From IMG/VR virus record IMGVR_UViG_648276650_000006: DNA of 7,032 bases; one strand, given 5' to 3'. The notes under the pieces are model-generated. The model ran no database searches. It was not told where the DNA came from and saw only the letters and a program-made list of their open reading frames with translations. How positions within the stretch are numbered: position 1 is the first letter of the stretch; each line of letters begins with the position of its first letter. The translations under genes and the position numbers were made by a program. The DNA is from a virus (Duplodnaviria; Heunggongvirae; Uroviricota; Caudoviricetes). Shown here one piece after another: positions 1,581 to 7,032 of the stretch.

Positions 1581-2204
1581 TTAAATCAGTGTGTTGCCCG
1601 GCTCCTCCTCTGAGGGCCCAGGAGACAGGACTTCACGGATACAGCTGAAGTGCGGAAGGGCCCGGATAAAGCCCGCCTGTGTGGTTAACTGGCTGAGACG
1701 TTTTAGCGGGGTGAAAGTTGTATTGAGGACTGTCACCGCATGGATGGTCGCCAGTGGATGCACGGTGATATGCCCGTTAAGTTCACCGGTGAGGTACCAG
1801 CAGCCGTCGAGTGATATCAGGCGGTACGGGGCCAGTCCGTCACAGCGCTCTCCCTCAGCCAGCAGCAGTACCCGTTGGCAGGCGGTAATAGCACTGACGA
1901 GACGGTAGAACACCAGTGAGGTGGCCGGTGATATAGTCTGTGGCGGTTGCCACACCAGACAGGGCATCCCTCCTGCTGTGAGCAGCATGCCCGCCAGACG
2001 CCGGTCCAGCCCCGGAAAGATATCGGCCAGTCCGGACCGGTGAGCAAAGGTCAGCGCATCCAGCTCACCCTGTACGCCCCCACTGGTGCTGCGCAGGCGG
2101 CATTGCCCTCGTCGATACTCCAGGTCCAGATACATCAGCCGTTCGCGAAAATCCCGTCGCAGGGTACGGACTGACACACTAAACTCTGCAGCCAGCCGGG
2201 CCAT
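1581..2204 (-). CDS. yfjR: HTH (DeoR-type) + WYL-domain transcriptional regulator, YfjR-like; coordinates are the longest canonical-start ORF, which appears N-terminally truncated
   Basis: ORF contains the HTH recognition region LAAEFSVSVRTLRRDF and a literal WYL motif (LDGCWYLTGELNGH). The frame stays open 29 codons upstream (to 2291), encoding (I)TQAERRHDRLAVRLSLIISRLVAGETLN, which completes helix 1 of the HTH. That stretch has no ATG/GTG/TTG; it begins at an ATA codon (2289..2291) with GGAG 7 nt upstream. Symbol is by family recollection; paralogues in other islands are possible. Confidence 0.55.
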   Translation of the reverse strand: MARLAAEFSVSVRTLRRDFRERLMYLDLEYRRGQCRLRSTSGGVQGELDALTFAHRSGLADIFPGLDRRLAGMLLTAGGMPCLVWQPPQTISPATSLVFYRLVSAITACQRVLLLAEGERCDGLAPYRLISLDGCWYLTGELNGHITVHPLATIHAVTVLNTTFTPLKRLSQLTTQAGFIRALPHFSCIREVLSPGPSEEEPGNTLI

Positions 2205-2499
2205 GTTCAGCGTCTCACCGGCAACCAGGCGGCTGATTATCAGTGACAGCCTGACAGCCAGTCGGTCGTGACGGCGCTCTGCCTGTGTTATCTCAAATCT
2301 CCGTAATAATTAACTGACTGAATATGAAATGATTCTAAAGAGGGGGGCGGACAGGGTATGGACATGGAATGAACTATTTTTTATCTGCCACCGGAGGCAA
2401 GCCCAACGCGGCGCACCGTGAAATACGGTGATAAAACACTCAATCCAATGGAGGTAAAACGGACAGGGAGTGTCCTTTCCCAACATGCTGATAACAAGC

Positions 2500-3324
2500 T
2501 CAGGACTGAAACCCACTCAGCATCGCTTCCGCCATCACCCAGAGAGCCCGGTTGAGCTTCACATCGCCGTCGATACCACGCACGGCGCGGGTGTGTGTTC
2601 GCCCACCTTTTGCACTCCGGCCACTGAGCCCGCCCTTAATCAGGTTCTCCTGAATACGCTGGTATGTGGTCCACAGGTCATTGCTCTCATCCTGCCAGCG
2701 GCGTGGGGAGAGTATCTGAGGTGCTGTCACCGGCTGGTGGTCCTCACCAAAACGGTACGTCAGTGCAGCCTGTGCCAGAGCCTGTTGTGCAGGTGGCGGC
2801 AGCATCAGCGACTGCATGGCATCCCGCTTCTCTTCCACACGGTCAAAAATACCCAGCACTTCATACGCCCCCTCAATCACCTGACTCACGACATCTCCTT
2901 TGTGCGGTACCCGCACCTCGCCGAACGATTCACCGCAGACAAGCCCGTTCTGGCATACCGCACGGAATAATCCCGGTAACATCTGATACGAGCTGGTGCC
3001 GTCATGAGAATTGAGCAGAATGATTTCTGGGACTTGCTTGCCAGTAATTTGTCCCTCCCGGCGCAGACGTAACATATGCTTTGTATGCTCGCGACGCCCT
3101 GGGTCACGCACCCGGGTCTGGCAGGCAAAGAAAGGCTGAAAGCCTTCACACTGCAGATTTTCAAGAACGGTAATGGTTGGTATCCAGGTATACCGTGCGC
3201 TACGAGACGCATGCTTCTCCTCGCTGAAGACACTGGGCACTACACGAAACAGCTCTTCCTGGGTTAACGGACGGTCACGACGAATAAGGTTTGCTGCGCC
3301 AAAGCGCGAAGCCAGACGGGTCAT
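2500..3324 (-). CDS. yfjQ: DUF932-family protein (YfjQ/YafZ-like)
   Basis: 274-aa product from the second in-frame ATG (3322..3324), which has a perfect AGGAG 7 nt upstream; the track start at 3339 lacks an SD. N-terminus MTRLASRFGAANLIRRDRPLTQEELFRVVPSVF matches my recollection of YfjQ/YafZ proteins, and length is close to the ~273 aa I recall. Lies directly after a GTPase gene as in CP4-57-type islands. Confidence 0.6.
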   Translation of the reverse strand: MTRLASRFGAANLIRRDRPLTQEELFRVVPSVFSEEKHASRSARYTWIPTITVLENLQCEGFQPFFACQTRVRDPGRREHTKHMLRLRREGQITGKQVPEIILLNSHDGTSSYQMLPGLFRAVCQNGLVCGESFGEVRVPHKGDVVSQVIEGAYEVLGIFDRVEEKRDAMQSLMLPPPAQQALAQAALTYRFGEDHQPVTAPQILSPRRWQDESNDLWTTYQRIQENLIKGGLSGRSAKGGRTHTRAVRGIDGDVKLNRALWVMAEAMLSGFQS

Positions 3325-3350
3325 AAGCAGACTCCTCATGATGGAAAATT

Positions 3351-3387
3351 AAATACAAAAAGCCCCGCCGCAAAATCGCGGCAGGGC
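3351..3387 (-). terminator. Rho-independent terminator-like hairpin between the GTPase and DUF932 genes
   Basis: Minus-strand RNA: stem GCCCUGCCGC / loop / GCGGCGGGGC (10 bp, one mismatch; plus 3362..3387), followed 3' by UUUUUGUAUUU (plus-strand A-run 3351..3361). Begins about 30 nt after the GTPase stop and ends about 25 nt before the DUF932 start. Confidence 0.55.
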
Positions 3388-3418
3388 TCAGGAAACTACG
3401 GGTTAGAAGGGTTAATGT

Positions 3419-4282
3419 TCAGAAGAAGAAATTCCAGACTGCACGGGCGACTGATACCACGATGTCGCGCACAGACTGGATGACTGACCGAACCTGGGCC
3501 GGTATCAGGGGCATGGAACTTACTGTATCCAGTACCGAGCCGACCGTTTCACCAAAATCGTCACGGGCTTTTTTATTAACGGCATCGGTACGAAGTGGCG
3601 CACTGAGTTGTACTGCCACCTGACTACTGGCCTCCCGTGGCAAGCAACGAATCATCCGCTCAGCCATCATCCGCAGCCCCCACTGCAAACGTATCGACAC
3701 CGCACAGACAGGGTTTACAGGTTGGAACAACTCATGCAGCAGACAGATTTTGAGGCTGATATTTCGTTTCTGCTCTGTAGACAGCTTTTCACCACCGCAG
3801 GTGGGTTCAACCTTGTCAGACTGGCTGATAACAAACAACACCTTATGCCGGTATGCTTCACCAATCACCTGCCGGTAAAAATGTTCATCTACGGCCAGCG
3901 CCCGATCATCACCCTTAATCAACCACAGAACCAGATCCAGCTGGGGGAGCTGTTTACGGTACAGCGTGGCATACTCTGTATCCCGGCGCTCAGACTCCCC
4001 GACGCCGGGTAAATCCACCAGCGTCATAAAGCGCTTCCCCACTTGCAGGCGAAAGCGTAAGGGTTCGCGTGTGCAGGCGGTCACATCGCTGACCGGTGAA
4101 ATCTCACCGGTAAACAGGGCATTACATAAGCTGCTCTTGCCCGAGCCAGTTTTACCCATGATGCCAATCACCGGCTCATAGTCAGTAAGCTGATTTATCT
4201 GCTGCAGAATACGCTCTGATGCCCAGTGCGGCAGGTTAGAAAGCGAATGCTGCAGTGACTGTAAACCTTCAAATTGATTCAT
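3419..4282 (-). CDS. yfjP: P-loop GTPase of the YfjP/YkfA/YeeP family (50S ribosome-binding GTPase-like domain)
   Basis: 287-aa ORF. Walker A/G1 GIMGKTGSGKSS, G3-like DLPG. AGGAG Shine-Dalgarno 5 nt upstream of the ATG at 4280..4282. Length matches what I recall for YfjP/YkfA (287 aa). The yfjP versus ykfA assignment rests on the downstream DUF932 and WYL-regulator order and is not certain. Confidence 0.7.
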   Translation of the reverse strand: MNQFEGLQSLQHSLSNLPHWASERILQQINQLTDYEPVIGIMGKTGSGKSSLCNALFTGEISPVSDVTACTREPLRFRLQVGKRFMTLVDLPGVGESERRDTEYATLYRKQLPQLDLVLWLIKGDDRALAVDEHFYRQVIGEAYRHKVLFVISQSDKVEPTCGGEKLSTEQKRNISLKICLLHELFQPVNPVCAVSIRLQWGLRMMAERMIRCLPREASSQVAVQLSAPLRTDAVNKKARDDFGETVGSVLDTVSSMPLIPAQVRSVIQSVRDIVVSVARAVWNFFF

Positions 4283-4300
4283 TACTGCTCCTCTGAAATG

Positions 4301-4335
4301 AAAACAAAAAAGGCAAGACCGTGAGGTTCTGCCTT
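4301..4335 (-). terminator. Terminator-like hairpin plus U-tract in the leader immediately upstream of the GTPase gene
   Basis: Minus-strand RNA: about 11-bp stem (plus 4310..4320 pairing with 4325..4335; one mismatch, one wobble), loop GUGA, followed 3' by UUUUUUGUUUUC (plus A-run 4301..4311), then the AGGAG SD and ATG. It faces transcripts entering from the AT-rich cargo side. Confidence 0.5.
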
Positions 4336-4384
4336 TAATGAGGTATGTTCAGGGGAATGATATATATCTGAATATTTTTAGAAT

Positions 4385-4430
4385 GCTGATAGGCCGTTCT
4401 GTGCCAGGAGCGGACGTTGCGAACGCTTTG
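4385..4430. repeat. Left copy of a degenerate ~46-bp direct repeat (core GTGCCAGGAGCGGAC)
   Basis: Manual alignment to 5363..5408 at a constant offset of 978 bp: core 15-mer 14/15 identical, flanks 9/16 and 7/15, about 30/46 overall. Located in the divergent intergenic region upstream of the Toprim gene. Confidence 0.45.
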
Positions 4431-4570
4431 AGACTGATGATCATTTCAGATGTTAATTAATTAAAGGCATGGTAATGTTTAGGCTCTGTAGGGTAAATTT
4501 CCCGCAGTATTTTCGGTTATCAATAGCTTGTGGAGTTAACTCTCAGAGGGGGCAGTTAGTGGGAACAACA

Positions 4571-5269
4571 ATGGAGGACATCCAATACGAAGAAATGTTA
4601 AATGAGCTTCTATTCGAAAAAGTAATGAAGAATGAAGCAAAAAAACAATGCATTTACATTTTTGTCGAAGGTGAGTCTGAAGAACTTGCTTTTCAACCCT
4701 TACTTGAAGACTGTGGTATAGATTTCGATAAGCTTGGTATTGTAATTGCAAATTACAATGGGATTGGTAACTTAAAACACGCCATAAGACTTCTACATAA
4801 AACATTGAGCCATGATCGACCAATAATAGTAACGTATGATGATGATCATGAAGGAAAAATAATAAAGAAAATAAATAGCCCATTGATCACATACTTTAAA
4901 ATACCATTTAGCCCTGTAGTTTCTTATAATGATGGAACTTTAGGCGGAACATTTGAAGAAAGCTTTCCTAAAGATTGCTTTATAGAAGCTTGCTTTCAGC
5001 AAAATGTTATAGCTAGTTCTTTTTTATCAAAACGTAATGACTTTGAAAAAAAATTCAATCCAACTCAGCCATGGTTAGCTCAATTAGCACAATTCATTTC
5101 TTCCAATGGTGGGACTCCTAATTCTATAAATAAAACAAAATTAGCTGAAAACATGATGCTTTCAGTATCTCAGATACCTGAAACCTATAATGAGTTAGCA
5201 AAGTTAATCATTGATATTAGAAACAAGACCCCAATAAAACACCCTGAAAATGTAGATTTGAATTTGTAA
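4571..5269 (+). CDS. Standalone Toprim-domain protein, a putative nuclease with an OLD/AriB-like catalytic core
   Basis: 232 aa from the ATG at 4571, where G+C content drops; the track ORF begins at ATG 4469, which is an alternative start. Toprim signature seen directly: hydrophobic strand IYIFVEGESEE with E33, and IIVTYDDDHEGK with D90-x-D92-x-x-G95. No Walker A motif in this ORF or in any adjacent ORF. Markedly AT-rich with A/T-ending codons, unlike the backbone. Confidence 0.6.
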   Translation: MEDIQYEEMLNELLFEKVMKNEAKKQCIYIFVEGESEELAFQPLLEDCGIDFDKLGIVIANYNGIGNLKHAIRLLHKTLSHDRPIIVTYDDDHEGKIIKKINSPLITYFKIPFSPVVSYNDGTLGGTFEESFPKDCFIEACFQQNVIASSFLSKRNDFEKKFNPTQPWLAQLAQFISSNGGTPNSINKTKLAENMMLSVSQIPETYNELAKLIIDIRNKTPIKHPENVDLNL

Positions 5270-5362
5270 ATAATACTATTTATTTTCACGCACTGATTTT
5301 TCCGCGTTTGGTAGGTATTATCGCAACGTCCTATTTTCACTCATAGCTGCCCTACCTACCTT

Positions 5363-5408
5363 CTTGATGGGCAGCTTCGTGCCAGAAGCGGACATAGCAT
5401 CCGCTAAA
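5363..5408. repeat. Right copy of the degenerate ~46-bp direct repeat (core GTGCCAGAAGCGGAC)
   Basis: See the left copy at 4385..4430. This copy lies about 95 nt downstream of the Toprim gene stop and contains a small hairpin, AGCGGA / loop CATAGCA / TCCGCT. Confidence 0.45.
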
Positions 5409-5790
5409 GTAAAAGCAGGCGTTAATACCTGTGAGGGGTAAAAACGCGCATCGATTAACAAGAGTAACTGTAGTGATTCACAATCATGAAAAAATTTTCT
5501 TTATACAGAATAAGAAGCCATTTAATATGGTTAGAAGATTTAATTTAAGAGTAAATTATATATAATATATGGCTAATTAACTTATGTTAATGGAACTATA
5601 AAATGAAAACTTCAATGAGTTAATCGGTGGATTAAATAAATATATCGTTCCTGGACTTCAGAGAGATAAGACTAATGATTTTCAAAAATAGATTTCTGAA
5701 CAAGCAGTGAAAGTGTGGGGTGTTAACTAATACATCAAGATATACTTTAAACGGATAATATATAAAGTCACAATCAAAGGTAGATGAAAA

Positions 5791-6813
5791 ATGTTAGACT
5801 TAGAATATGCTGTAACTGAGCCTTTTTTAAATTACCATTTATTTCATGAAGGATTAAATACGAAGGTTAAGGTTTTAACCTCATCACTTAATCATGTGAT
5901 TGAATATTTATTGACGCCAGGCAATGAAAATAAAATGAATGAGCTCATTAAGAAAACTGATAAATCTTGGCAATTCCCGCCGAATTTTTCACTTCCAAGC
6001 CCTCCAGTTGATGAATCAAATTTAAAAAATAAAACATCATCAAGAAGACTAGATAAGGAAGAGGATAATAATGAATTAGATTATCAATTAAAGAAAAAGG
6101 AATTAGCGCAAGAGATGTTGTATTGGTATGTAAGTGAAATGGCTATATTTGGCACTTTTTCTGCTTTGGATGATTGTATTGTCGATATTGATTCTTGGTT
6201 TTCAAGTTGGGCAATGTTTAATAACACTCAAGATAAAAAATCGGAATCAACCAGTAGTAACAAAATTGAAAGGTTATATGATTCACACGAATGGAACATG
6301 AAGAACATAAAGACATTCCTTCCGATTTATGAGTATTTTTCAGCAGTTAGAAATTCAATAGCTCATAGGCAATCCAAAGCATCTCATAAGTTATCAGAGA
6401 TATCAAAATCCCAAGAATTAAAAGAGTCAGTAGAGAGAAACTTCCCAAAAGGTAAACCATTAAGTGAATTTGAATATAATGAAGATATATTCATCTCTCC
6501 AAAAACGTCGTTGCTTTGTTCTCACATAATAAGATTAATTTTCGAAGATATCAATAAATACATCATAAAAAAAATGGGTATTGAAGGTATCATCTACATG
6601 TCATGCAAACTTGCATTTGAACCATCATCTTATAATGAAAGCAAAGTTGTTAACTTAGCTAGAAATAGATTGAACGAAATCGTTAGTGGTCGATATCATG
6701 TAATTATAAAAGGTGAGGATGAAGCCGTTAAGGTTGCTGAGTCACTTGGCATTTGGCGTGATTGCGCTAAATTTCATGCGAACAATATGAGGAAATTAGA
6801 TCCAAAATTCTAA
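5791..6813 (+). CDS. Hypothetical 340-aa protein with an R-x4-H (RNSIAH) HEPN-like motif; candidate Abi-like RNase
   Basis: Long uninterrupted AT-rich ORF. AAGG lies about 10 nt upstream of the ATG, a weak SD. No P-loop. The single motif R187-N-S-I-A-H192 (nt 6349..6366) has the RNxxAH form common in HEPN RNases, within a predicted helical stretch (FLPIYEYFSAVRNSIAHRQ). The CDS call is stronger than the functional call, which rests on one short motif. Confidence 0.6.
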   Translation: MLDLEYAVTEPFLNYHLFHEGLNTKVKVLTSSLNHVIEYLLTPGNENKMNELIKKTDKSWQFPPNFSLPSPPVDESNLKNKTSSRRLDKEEDNNELDYQLKKKELAQEMLYWYVSEMAIFGTFSALDDCIVDIDSWFSSWAMFNNTQDKKSESTSSNKIERLYDSHEWNMKNIKTFLPIYEYFSAVRNSIAHRQSKASHKLSEISKSQELKESVERNFPKGKPLSEFEYNEDIFISPKTSLLCSHIIRLIFEDINKYIIKKMGIEGIIYMSCKLAFEPSSYNESKVVNLARNRLNEIVSGRYHVIIKGEDEAVKVAESLGIWRDCAKFHANNMRKLDPKF

Positions 6814-6899
6814 CCTTATCGCGAAATAATTTATGTGCCAGAGTTTCCCTGGCGCTATTGCGATAATGTTTTATTGGCCTATGCCTCGCAGATTAACAC

Positions 6900-6928
6900 A
6901 GGGCGATGTTAAAAGTCGCCCTTTATAG
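6900..6928 (+). terminator. Candidate intrinsic terminator downstream of the HEPN-like gene
   Basis: Plus strand: stem (A)GGGCGA / 9-nt loop / TCGCCC(T), followed by TTTATAG; about 90 nt after the stop at 6813. Short stem and weak U-tract. Confidence 0.35.
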
Positions 6929-7032
6929 TCAGAACAGATTCCTACTTCCGCTCCTCGCTCATAGCAGACCTTCAGATCCGGGAGGGTGTCCGCTTAGTGC
7001 TGTGAGTTCAACTGATGGACGCAACACACTTA

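Follow-up and report, generated by a model that had tools for sequence, protein, structure and literature searches.

The window, by which we mean the entire stretch of 7,032 nucleotides that was analyzed, is 100% identical to the chromosome of Escherichia coli MS 115-1 (NZ_CP146665.1), where it sits within a CP4-like genomic island. The island backbone has a GC content of approximately 53% and specifies CbtA/YeeU, a JAB/RadC protein, an antirestriction gene, DUF932, and a YeeP-type GTPase. GC content falls to 31–35% from approximately position 4400 onward, marking the start of the cargo. Inside the window, the low-GC cargo consists of a Toprim ORF, a 340-aa ORF, and an IS30-family element; past the window it continues with DinB, a DUF4297/HerA-like pair broken by IS3, and a truncated integrase. 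Enterobacter sp. Bisph1 (contig026, locus L003) carries backbone and cargo at 99.9% nucleotide identity over 5.3 kb (window 1653–6975). Such identity across genera, here an E. coli isolate from the gut and an Enterobacter strain, implies a very recent transfer of the island between them. The features are as follows.

2500–3339, minus strand: DUF932 gene, island backbone
3419–4282, minus strand: YeeP-type GTPase gene, island backbone
4401–4417, plus strand: left boundary motif of the Toprim module, GTGCCAGGAGCGGACGT
4418–4558, plus strand: conserved noncoding leader (promoter/5' UTR), 140 nt
4559–5269, plus strand: gene for a predicted stand-alone OLD-type Toprim nuclease (ORF list; PGAP CDS WP_024198337.1, identical coordinates; PF20469)
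4559–4645, plus strand: conserved N-terminal helix, consensus MxTTxEDIxYDEM... (model helix at residues 5–29; family conservation)
4646–4945, plus strand: Toprim core (Pfam match, invariant columns, spacing as in BpOLD)
4667–4669, 4838–4840, and 4844–4846, plus strand: E33, D90, and D92, putative metal-A ligands by their BpOLD counterparts
4679–4681, plus strand: E37, putative metal-B ligand by its BpOLD counterpart
4946–5266, plus strand: OLD-type helical domain, ending in a conserved PxKHPxxV tail
4949–4951 and 4955–4957, plus strand: T127 and E129, helical-domain counterparts of metal-B ligands
5132–5134, plus strand: K188, helical-domain counterpart of the catalytic lysine
5270–5349, plus strand: conserved trailer and right module end (blastn ends, alignment)
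4401–4417 (plus), 5321–5349 (inverted), 5379–5395 (plus), and 6944–6960 (inverted): boundary-motif copies in the window
5379–6977, plus strand: separate module with the 340-aa ORF and its own motif copies, not part of the Toprim system
5791–6813, plus strand: 340-aa HEPN-like ORF with an invariant RNSIAH

The Toprim ORF and its two motifs, VEG..E and DxD, lie where an earlier note on this DNA had placed them. That note began the gene at the ATG at 4571, which would yield a protein of 232 aa. We favor the GTG at 4559, which yields 236 aa and is probably the authentic start: it is preceded by a Shine-Dalgarno sequence, it is the start chosen by PGAP, and GTG and Shine-Dalgarno sequence are both kept in four Enterobacterales copies. 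The ATG, by comparison, reads ATT in the Morganella copy. Some gene callers lengthen the ORF upstream (4469–4558) to 264–266 aa, as seen in family protein P0001 and in the ORF list. Because this extension is unconserved and contains a stop codon in E. coli PAR, we regard it as an open-frame artifact. NCBI labels the proteins of this family [quoted passage not shown]

Several Toprim families had been put forward as candidate relatives, and the one that matches is OLD-like_TOPRIM (PF20469), which scores 38.4 bits against a cutoff of 23.2 over residues 30–92. The generic Toprim and OLD-like_TOPRIM_1 Pfam models remain below threshold; the DUF4435 (at E ≤ 1), DUF3226, and RloB models do not match the ORF, and it contains no AAA_15, AAA_21, SMC_N, or reverse transcriptase Pfam domain. 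PADLOC returns partial matches only, to the Toprim regions of GajA models and to mad4 and HEC-01B. Structure comparison was needed because a PDB profile search with the family gave only a marginal match, to 6nk8 (E 0.11). Specifically, an AlphaFold2 model was built from an 87-sequence alignment (pLDDT 88), and its top five Foldseek matches are the C-terminal regions of Burkholderia pseudomallei (Bp) and Xanthomonas campestris (Xcc) OLD, with 217–231 columns aligned. Thus, the two motifs are not coincidental: the fold is Toprim, and the match covers the entire catalytic C-terminal region of OLD.

One consequence concerns the region downstream of the Toprim core, in which the earlier note recognized no motif. 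These 110 residues are the OLD helical domain, as the best Foldseek matches span the full Bp and Xcc OLD C-terminal regions, and they hold apparent counterparts of metal-B ligands and of the catalytic lysine. In Bp OLD, E400, D455, and D457 bind metal A, E404, T506, and E508 bind metal B, and K562, on the helical domain, is the catalytic lysine (Schiltz et al., PMC6755086). The spacing of E33, E37 (+4), D90, D92, T127-x-E129, and K188 in the Toprim protein matches that active site. E33, E37, D90, D92, E129, and K188 are invariant in the 87-sequence family alignment, and every sequence in the displayed family alignment has Ser or Thr at the T127 position. The VEGxsEE, DxD, fEExF, and inK..La blocks likewise align to full-length AAA_15+Toprim OLD proteins. 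For the helical domain, the alignment was taken from hmmsearch; hhalign of the family alignment against a full-length OLD protein aligned only up to the DxD. At the other end of the protein, the conserved N-terminal helix aligns to the linker ahead of the Toprim domain in full-length OLD protein P0213 (residues 342–375), which fits an origin via loss of the ATPase at the linker. An OLD nuclease combines a Toprim domain possessing an invariant Glu and a DxD, a helical domain bearing T-x-E metal-B ligands and a catalytic Lys, and, in the same protein, an N-terminal ABC ATPase. The Toprim protein has the first two and begins approximately 30 residues ahead of the Toprim core. It falls short of the OLD nuclease definition solely by the absent ATPase.

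The protein belongs to a distinct family. A word-indexed search identified 129 members, nearly all of 230–250 aa apart from some partials, and PF20469 is the sole Pfam domain recorded for them. An exhaustive profile search of 1.84 billion representatives yielded 28 clusters (50% identity) at E<1e-30. Past these clusters, there is a gap to E>1e-7, at which point the matches are mostly OLD proteins of 400–630 aa, aligned via their C-terminal regions. Full-length family members have 230–263 aa and no ATPase domain, with a lone exception of 668 aa. That exception, metagenomic protein P0158, carries the Toprim module at residues 8–233, followed by approximately 435 residues with an HExxH-like HEYIH and a Cys-rich tail. 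The added region has no Pfam match; judged by these motifs, P0158 may be a fusion to a metallopeptidase-like domain.

Hosts of the family include Enterobacterales, Vibrio, Pseudomonas, Stenotrophomonas, Marinomonas, Desulfobacterota, Chlorobiaceae, Akkermansia, Cloacimonetes, Thermodesulfovibrionales, Dadabacteria, and one Altiarchaeales archaeon. Within E. coli the gene is present in 2 of 5,426 complete genomes. Among plasmids, the one match is to a Pseudoalteromonas replicon of 680 kb. The gene also appears on 3 of 2.9 million IMG/VR viral contigs, in one case beside prophage lysis genes. No match exists among 50,697 phage genomes, and we therefore reject a phage origin. Among the four Enterobacterales copies, dN/dS is 0.16–0.45, indicating purifying selection. 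Full-text literature searches revealed no description of this stand-alone Toprim family.

In Enterobacterales, the gene moves as a one-gene module of 950 bp. Specifically, blastn shows that block 4401–5349 is common to the E. coli PAR, Pectobacterium, and Morganella copies, and that a prophage-like contig shares the block from approximately 4415 to 5289. Similarity to other E. coli CP4-like islands ends at the left boundary motif, and the right end points in three other genera are 5329, 5349, and 5382. At its end, the trailer carries the boundary motif in inverted orientation (TCGCAAC GTCC ... at 5321–5349). Identity in the leader is 71–82% between copies versus 59–72% at synonymous sites. The leader has no conserved ORF and no unusual RNA fold (z-score −0.72), an Rfam search of the window gave no match, and the module contains no second conserved ORF, small or antisense. 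An RNA regulator or antitoxin in the leader is rejected on these grounds.

We note that, in the island cargo of several Enterobacterales, each module of a single gene lies between a 17-nt motif, GTGCCAGRAGCGGACRT, and an inverted copy of that motif. The modules so bracketed carry the Toprim gene, the HEPN-like ORF, DinB, Abi_alpha, and GIY-YIG. Outside the window, motif copies lie at the following positions.

L001: 18921, 19627, 26171
L002: 8001, 10349, 14448
L003: 5292, 5345, 11764
L004: 8764, 9832
L023: 5589, 7637

Motif copies with ≤2 mismatches occur far above chance, a rough estimate being ~0.005 expected per 33 kb. The module junctions are imperfect palindromes of 75–80 bp with AAC...GTT-like ends, which makes them superficially attC-like, and the first bases of the Toprim module, GTTGCGA, are complementary to the TCGCAAC at its end. 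The E. coli junction hairpins are weak (z −1.1 to −2.5), GTT is changed to ATT or ATA in several copies, and the predicted complementarity of the ends failed for the DinB module. No intI was found near the window island, and blastn of the junction in E. coli genomes returned only the self match. The IS30-family element, ISCfr4, runs from window 7000–7032 on to L001 18923 and appears to be inserted inside one boundary-motif copy: its joined flanks, GTCCGCTTAGTG|CCAGGAGCAGACAT, rebuild the motif, and in Enterobacter sp. Bisph1 the same junction is uninterrupted and lacks ISCfr4. Farther along the island, a DinB-family gene occupies its own motif-bounded module between the window and a DUF4297 protein gene adjoining a gene for a HerA-like AAA ATPase (L001 19825–23823, approximately 3 kb beyond the window), the latter split by IS3. 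This pair may be a defense pair of the DUF4297-HerA type.

In Vibrio, the Toprim gene forms an integron cassette by itself, with no second ORF. The arrangement that defines such a cassette, a single ORF between hairpin-forming attC sites (R'' ..AAC / R' GTT..) in an array headed by intI, is found for the Vibrio homologs only. In Vibrio owensii (L029), the ORF lies between 132-nt VCR-like attC repeats, with a shorter attC 49 nt past the stop codon. VCR is the attC type of Vibrio chromosomal integrons. A second Vibrio array (L026) has an integron-type integrase at its head and canonical ATAAC...GTTAT sites 22 nt before the start codon and across the stop codon; the upstream attC hairpin has a z-score of −5.4.

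We searched the surroundings of the gene for a partner. The Toprim ORF has no Walker A motif, and a scan of all six frames bears out the earlier claim that the only one in the window belongs to the backbone GTPase. All-versus-all BLAST of the neighbors at 21 loci reveals no flanking family in common, apart from the CP4-like backbone that the three closest loci share. When Pfam and PADLOC are applied to the 76 genes within two positions, each Pfam family appears at most twice, and Pfam detects no recurrent partner among the 20 immediate neighbors. At 14 of the 21 loci, no Walker A protein is encoded within two genes. Where ATPases do lie nearby, they comprise the backbone GTPase, large helicases, a UvrD-like helicase (L013), an ABC transporter (L004), the single-gene candidate PDC-S06 (L031), and an Old nuclease that is complete and includes a Toprim domain of its own (L009). 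Two AbiLi-like matches among the 76 neighbors are provisionally attributed, by Pfam and Walker A, to the L009 complete Old and the L004 ABC transporter. None of these qualifies as the ATPase partner: L004 offers an ABC transporter, L009 a complete Old, L013 a UvrD-like protein without a GajB match, and L031 PDC-S06. Homologs are thus not always encoded beside an ATPase that happens to be missing here; no neighbor family recurs in more than 2 of the 76 flanking genes, length is uniform at 230–263 aa, and the modules have one ORF. The reading of the locus as a stand-alone Toprim gene without an ATPase partner is supported. What does characterize the neighborhoods is a catalog of defense genes: Dsr1, Abi_alpha, AbiGi-like, Mrr, DUF4365, DUF2971, DpdJ, and BrxH.

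Comparison with known systems sharpens the assignment. The nearest counterpart is the C-terminal catalytic region of class 2 OLD proteins (B. pseudomallei and X. campestris OLD; GajA). Unlike those, the Toprim protein has no N-terminal ABC ATPase and no dimerization region, and identity is only ~18–20%. It belongs to its own tight family, set apart from full-length OLD by >20 orders of magnitude in E-value. In class 1 OLD (P2 Old, TsOLD, Vibrio cholerae OLD, and E. coli YbjD), the ATPase is in the same polypeptide and is required. Unlike Gabija, no conserved UvrD/GajB gene lies downstream, the HEPN-like ORF being what follows in the window; a UvrD-like gene is present at 1 of the 21 loci (L013) and lacks a GajB profile match. 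PARIS AriB (a DUF4435 Toprim, class 4 OLD) and the AbiLii/RloB-type toxins are always encoded beside an ABC/AAA ATPase (AriA, AbiLi, or NetFlax D29) by which they are neutralized or caged. The Toprim protein, in contrast, matches neither DUF4435 nor the PARIS models and has no linked ATPase; it likewise has no RloB match and no adjacent neutralizing AAA (AbiLi/D29) gene.

Retron Eco2 (Ec67) is a special case. The earlier note had proceeded from the premise that defensive Toprim nucleases always have an ATPase or SMC-like partner, to which retron Eco2 is a published exception: its Toprim domain forms one protein with a reverse transcriptase, and retron DNA (msDNA) cages it (PMC12916289). Thus, ATPase-free control of an OLD-type Toprim exists, but via components absent here: the window protein has no reverse transcriptase, noncoding RNA, or fusion partner. 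RNase M5, 2i5r, and PH0156/DUF3226 represent small Toprim proteins that have no ATPase and whose two-metal site is related. These proteins do not possess the OLD helical domain and lysine, sequence matches to them stay below threshold (TIGR00334, 14 bits against a cutoff of 110.65), and RNase M5 is a core rRNA-maturation gene rather than mobile cargo.

OLD, Gabija, and PARIS are viewed as systems in which the ATPase is sensor and safety catch and Toprim is the blade. Here, a complete blade is kept without the ATPase across many phyla, under purifying selection, and among the smallest possible mobile units. We infer, at slightly better than even confidence, that the Toprim protein is an autonomous, ATPase-independent, metal-dependent nuclease acting in defense or abortive infection. 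On this view, the gene product is the entire catalytic C-terminal region of OLD, made up of linker helix, Toprim domain, and helical domain, with a two-metal site and catalytic lysine. The N-terminal ABC ATPase of an OLD protein would have been lost at the linker, and the remaining gene would have survived and spread alone, as a one-gene cassette in Vibrio integrons, as the 950-bp island module in Enterobacterales, and as an occasional prophage accessory gene. The product would be an Mg2+/Mn2+-dependent endonuclease that binds and cuts without an NTPase. Consistent with this proposal, isolated Bp and Xcc OLD C-terminal regions bind, nick, or degrade DNA in vitro without the ATPase (PMC6755086), and the Toprim domains of P2 Old, AriB, and retron Eco2 cut tRNA. 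The substrate could accordingly be either DNA, nicked or cleaved as by the class 2 OLD C-terminal regions, or tRNA, as for P2 Old, AriB, and Eco2. The role would be that of a compact effector against phages or mobile elements, possibly causing abortive infection. A Toprim domain is not automatically the effector: the phage phenotype of E. coli YbjD reportedly does not require its Toprim domain (PMC13261556).

The autonomous-nuclease reading must accommodate toxicity. Free TOPRIM_OLD proteins of two-gene systems are toxic in E. coli unless the AAA partner is present (PMC10440598). By that measure, an unregulated Toprim copy should be harmful, which counts against an autonomous nuclease, and we identified no regulator inside the module. 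Restraint might come from low expression from the gene's own leader, from substrate specificity, or from gating by the conserved N-terminal helix, the C-terminal tail, or oligomerization. We tentatively entertain a stronger version, to which we give somewhat less than even weight: this could be the smallest OLD-type immune system, a nuclease of 236 aa that alone protects against phages or plasmids, is gated by something other than an NTPase, and is traded as an integron cassette. In that case, a phage trigger might bind the N-terminal helix or C-terminal tail, the oligomeric state might switch, or the nuclease might be specific for a phage-dependent substrate, for example, a particular tRNA or DNA end.

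Against a defense role, genes unrelated to defense also travel in integron cassettes and island cargo, and the family is rare. An alternative that we judge unlikely is that the gene is a selfish or housekeeping-type cassette gene, encoding a toxin that stabilizes the array or island, a DNA repair or processing nuclease, or an antiplasmid nuclease. Chromosomal integron arrays are rich in addiction modules, and ParE/ParD, Phd, and RelB adjoin the Toprim gene in the L026 Vibrio array; in addition, the structural relatives include RNase M5/DnaG-like active sites. However, the Toprim module provides no second conserved ORF or structured RNA to serve as an antitoxin, its non-integron surroundings are overwhelmingly defense genes, and because the gene is accessory and rare, it is not a housekeeping gene.

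A further possibility, to which we assign a rather low probability, is a split system: the Toprim protein would be only its effector, paired with an ATPase, SMC, or other sensor encoded at a distant site, or it would borrow a host factor. All well-studied OLD-type effectors are restrained by a partner, be it ATPase domains, AriA, or msDNA, and the dependence of AriB on AriA supplies a model; the toxicity of free TOPRIM_OLD proteins and the lack of a regulator within the module point the same way. Against a split system, the gene transfers alone, as integron cassette and 950-bp module, across genera and phyla, so an unlinked partner would have to pre-exist in Vibrio, Akkermansia, Desulfobacterota, and an Altiarchaeales archaeon, and OLD C-terminal regions show activity in vitro when isolated.

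A two-gene system, with the 340-aa HEPN-like ORF as sensor or co-effector, is very improbable, and we reject it. The two ORFs share a strand and the low-GC cargo, both E. coli MS 115-1 and Enterobacter sp. Bisph1 have them side by side, and the 340-aa ORF carries an invariant RNSIAH (Rx4H) motif and has HEPN-like fold matches; a HEPN RNase is defined by a four-helix fold together with an Rx4-6H motif. Yet the genes are 521 bp apart and bounded by separate copies of the motif. Klebsiella has a 96.6% identical 340-aa gene, preceded there by a LEM-3-type GIY-YIG nuclease gene with McrBC adjoining, and a 54% homolog has no Toprim neighbor. Conversely, E. coli PAR, Pectobacterium, Morganella, Vibrio, and all other loci have the Toprim module but not the 340-aa gene. 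The families also differ in size, with 24 proteins, mostly >84% identical, in the narrow family of the 340-aa ORF versus 129 in the Toprim family. Finally, that the gene is a decayed remnant, a pseudogene in the making from an OLD/PARIS-like locus stripped of its ATPase by local rearrangement, might be suggested by the IS30, IS3, and IS1 copies and truncated integrase in the island and by the downstream HerA-like ATPase split by IS3, but this reading, which we give almost no weight, is refuted by conservation: the ORF is intact and under purifying selection, 87 sequences from many phyla show no change at its catalytic residues, family length is uniform with a sharp gap to full-length OLD, and the module has the same ends in four genera.

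If the Toprim protein defends alone, it would offer a simple system for learning how a Toprim nuclease stays harmless and what triggers it, and it would be a compact single-gene addition to the defense catalog, relevant to integron cassette screens. If an unlinked host factor is required, that factor would represent a new kind of OLD nuclease regulator.

We note one further ORF at two of the loci. A 301-aa ORF, convergent with the Toprim gene, lies in the E. coli PAR CP4-like island (L002 9229–10134, minus strand) and in the prophage-like IMG/VR contig (L030 6060–6965, minus strand), within a common block of 2.3 kb. The two copies are 85% identical and have no Pfam or PADLOC match. By eye, their FIDMLGY...FLRGGIS motifs resemble a nucleotidyl-cyclase-type palm domain.
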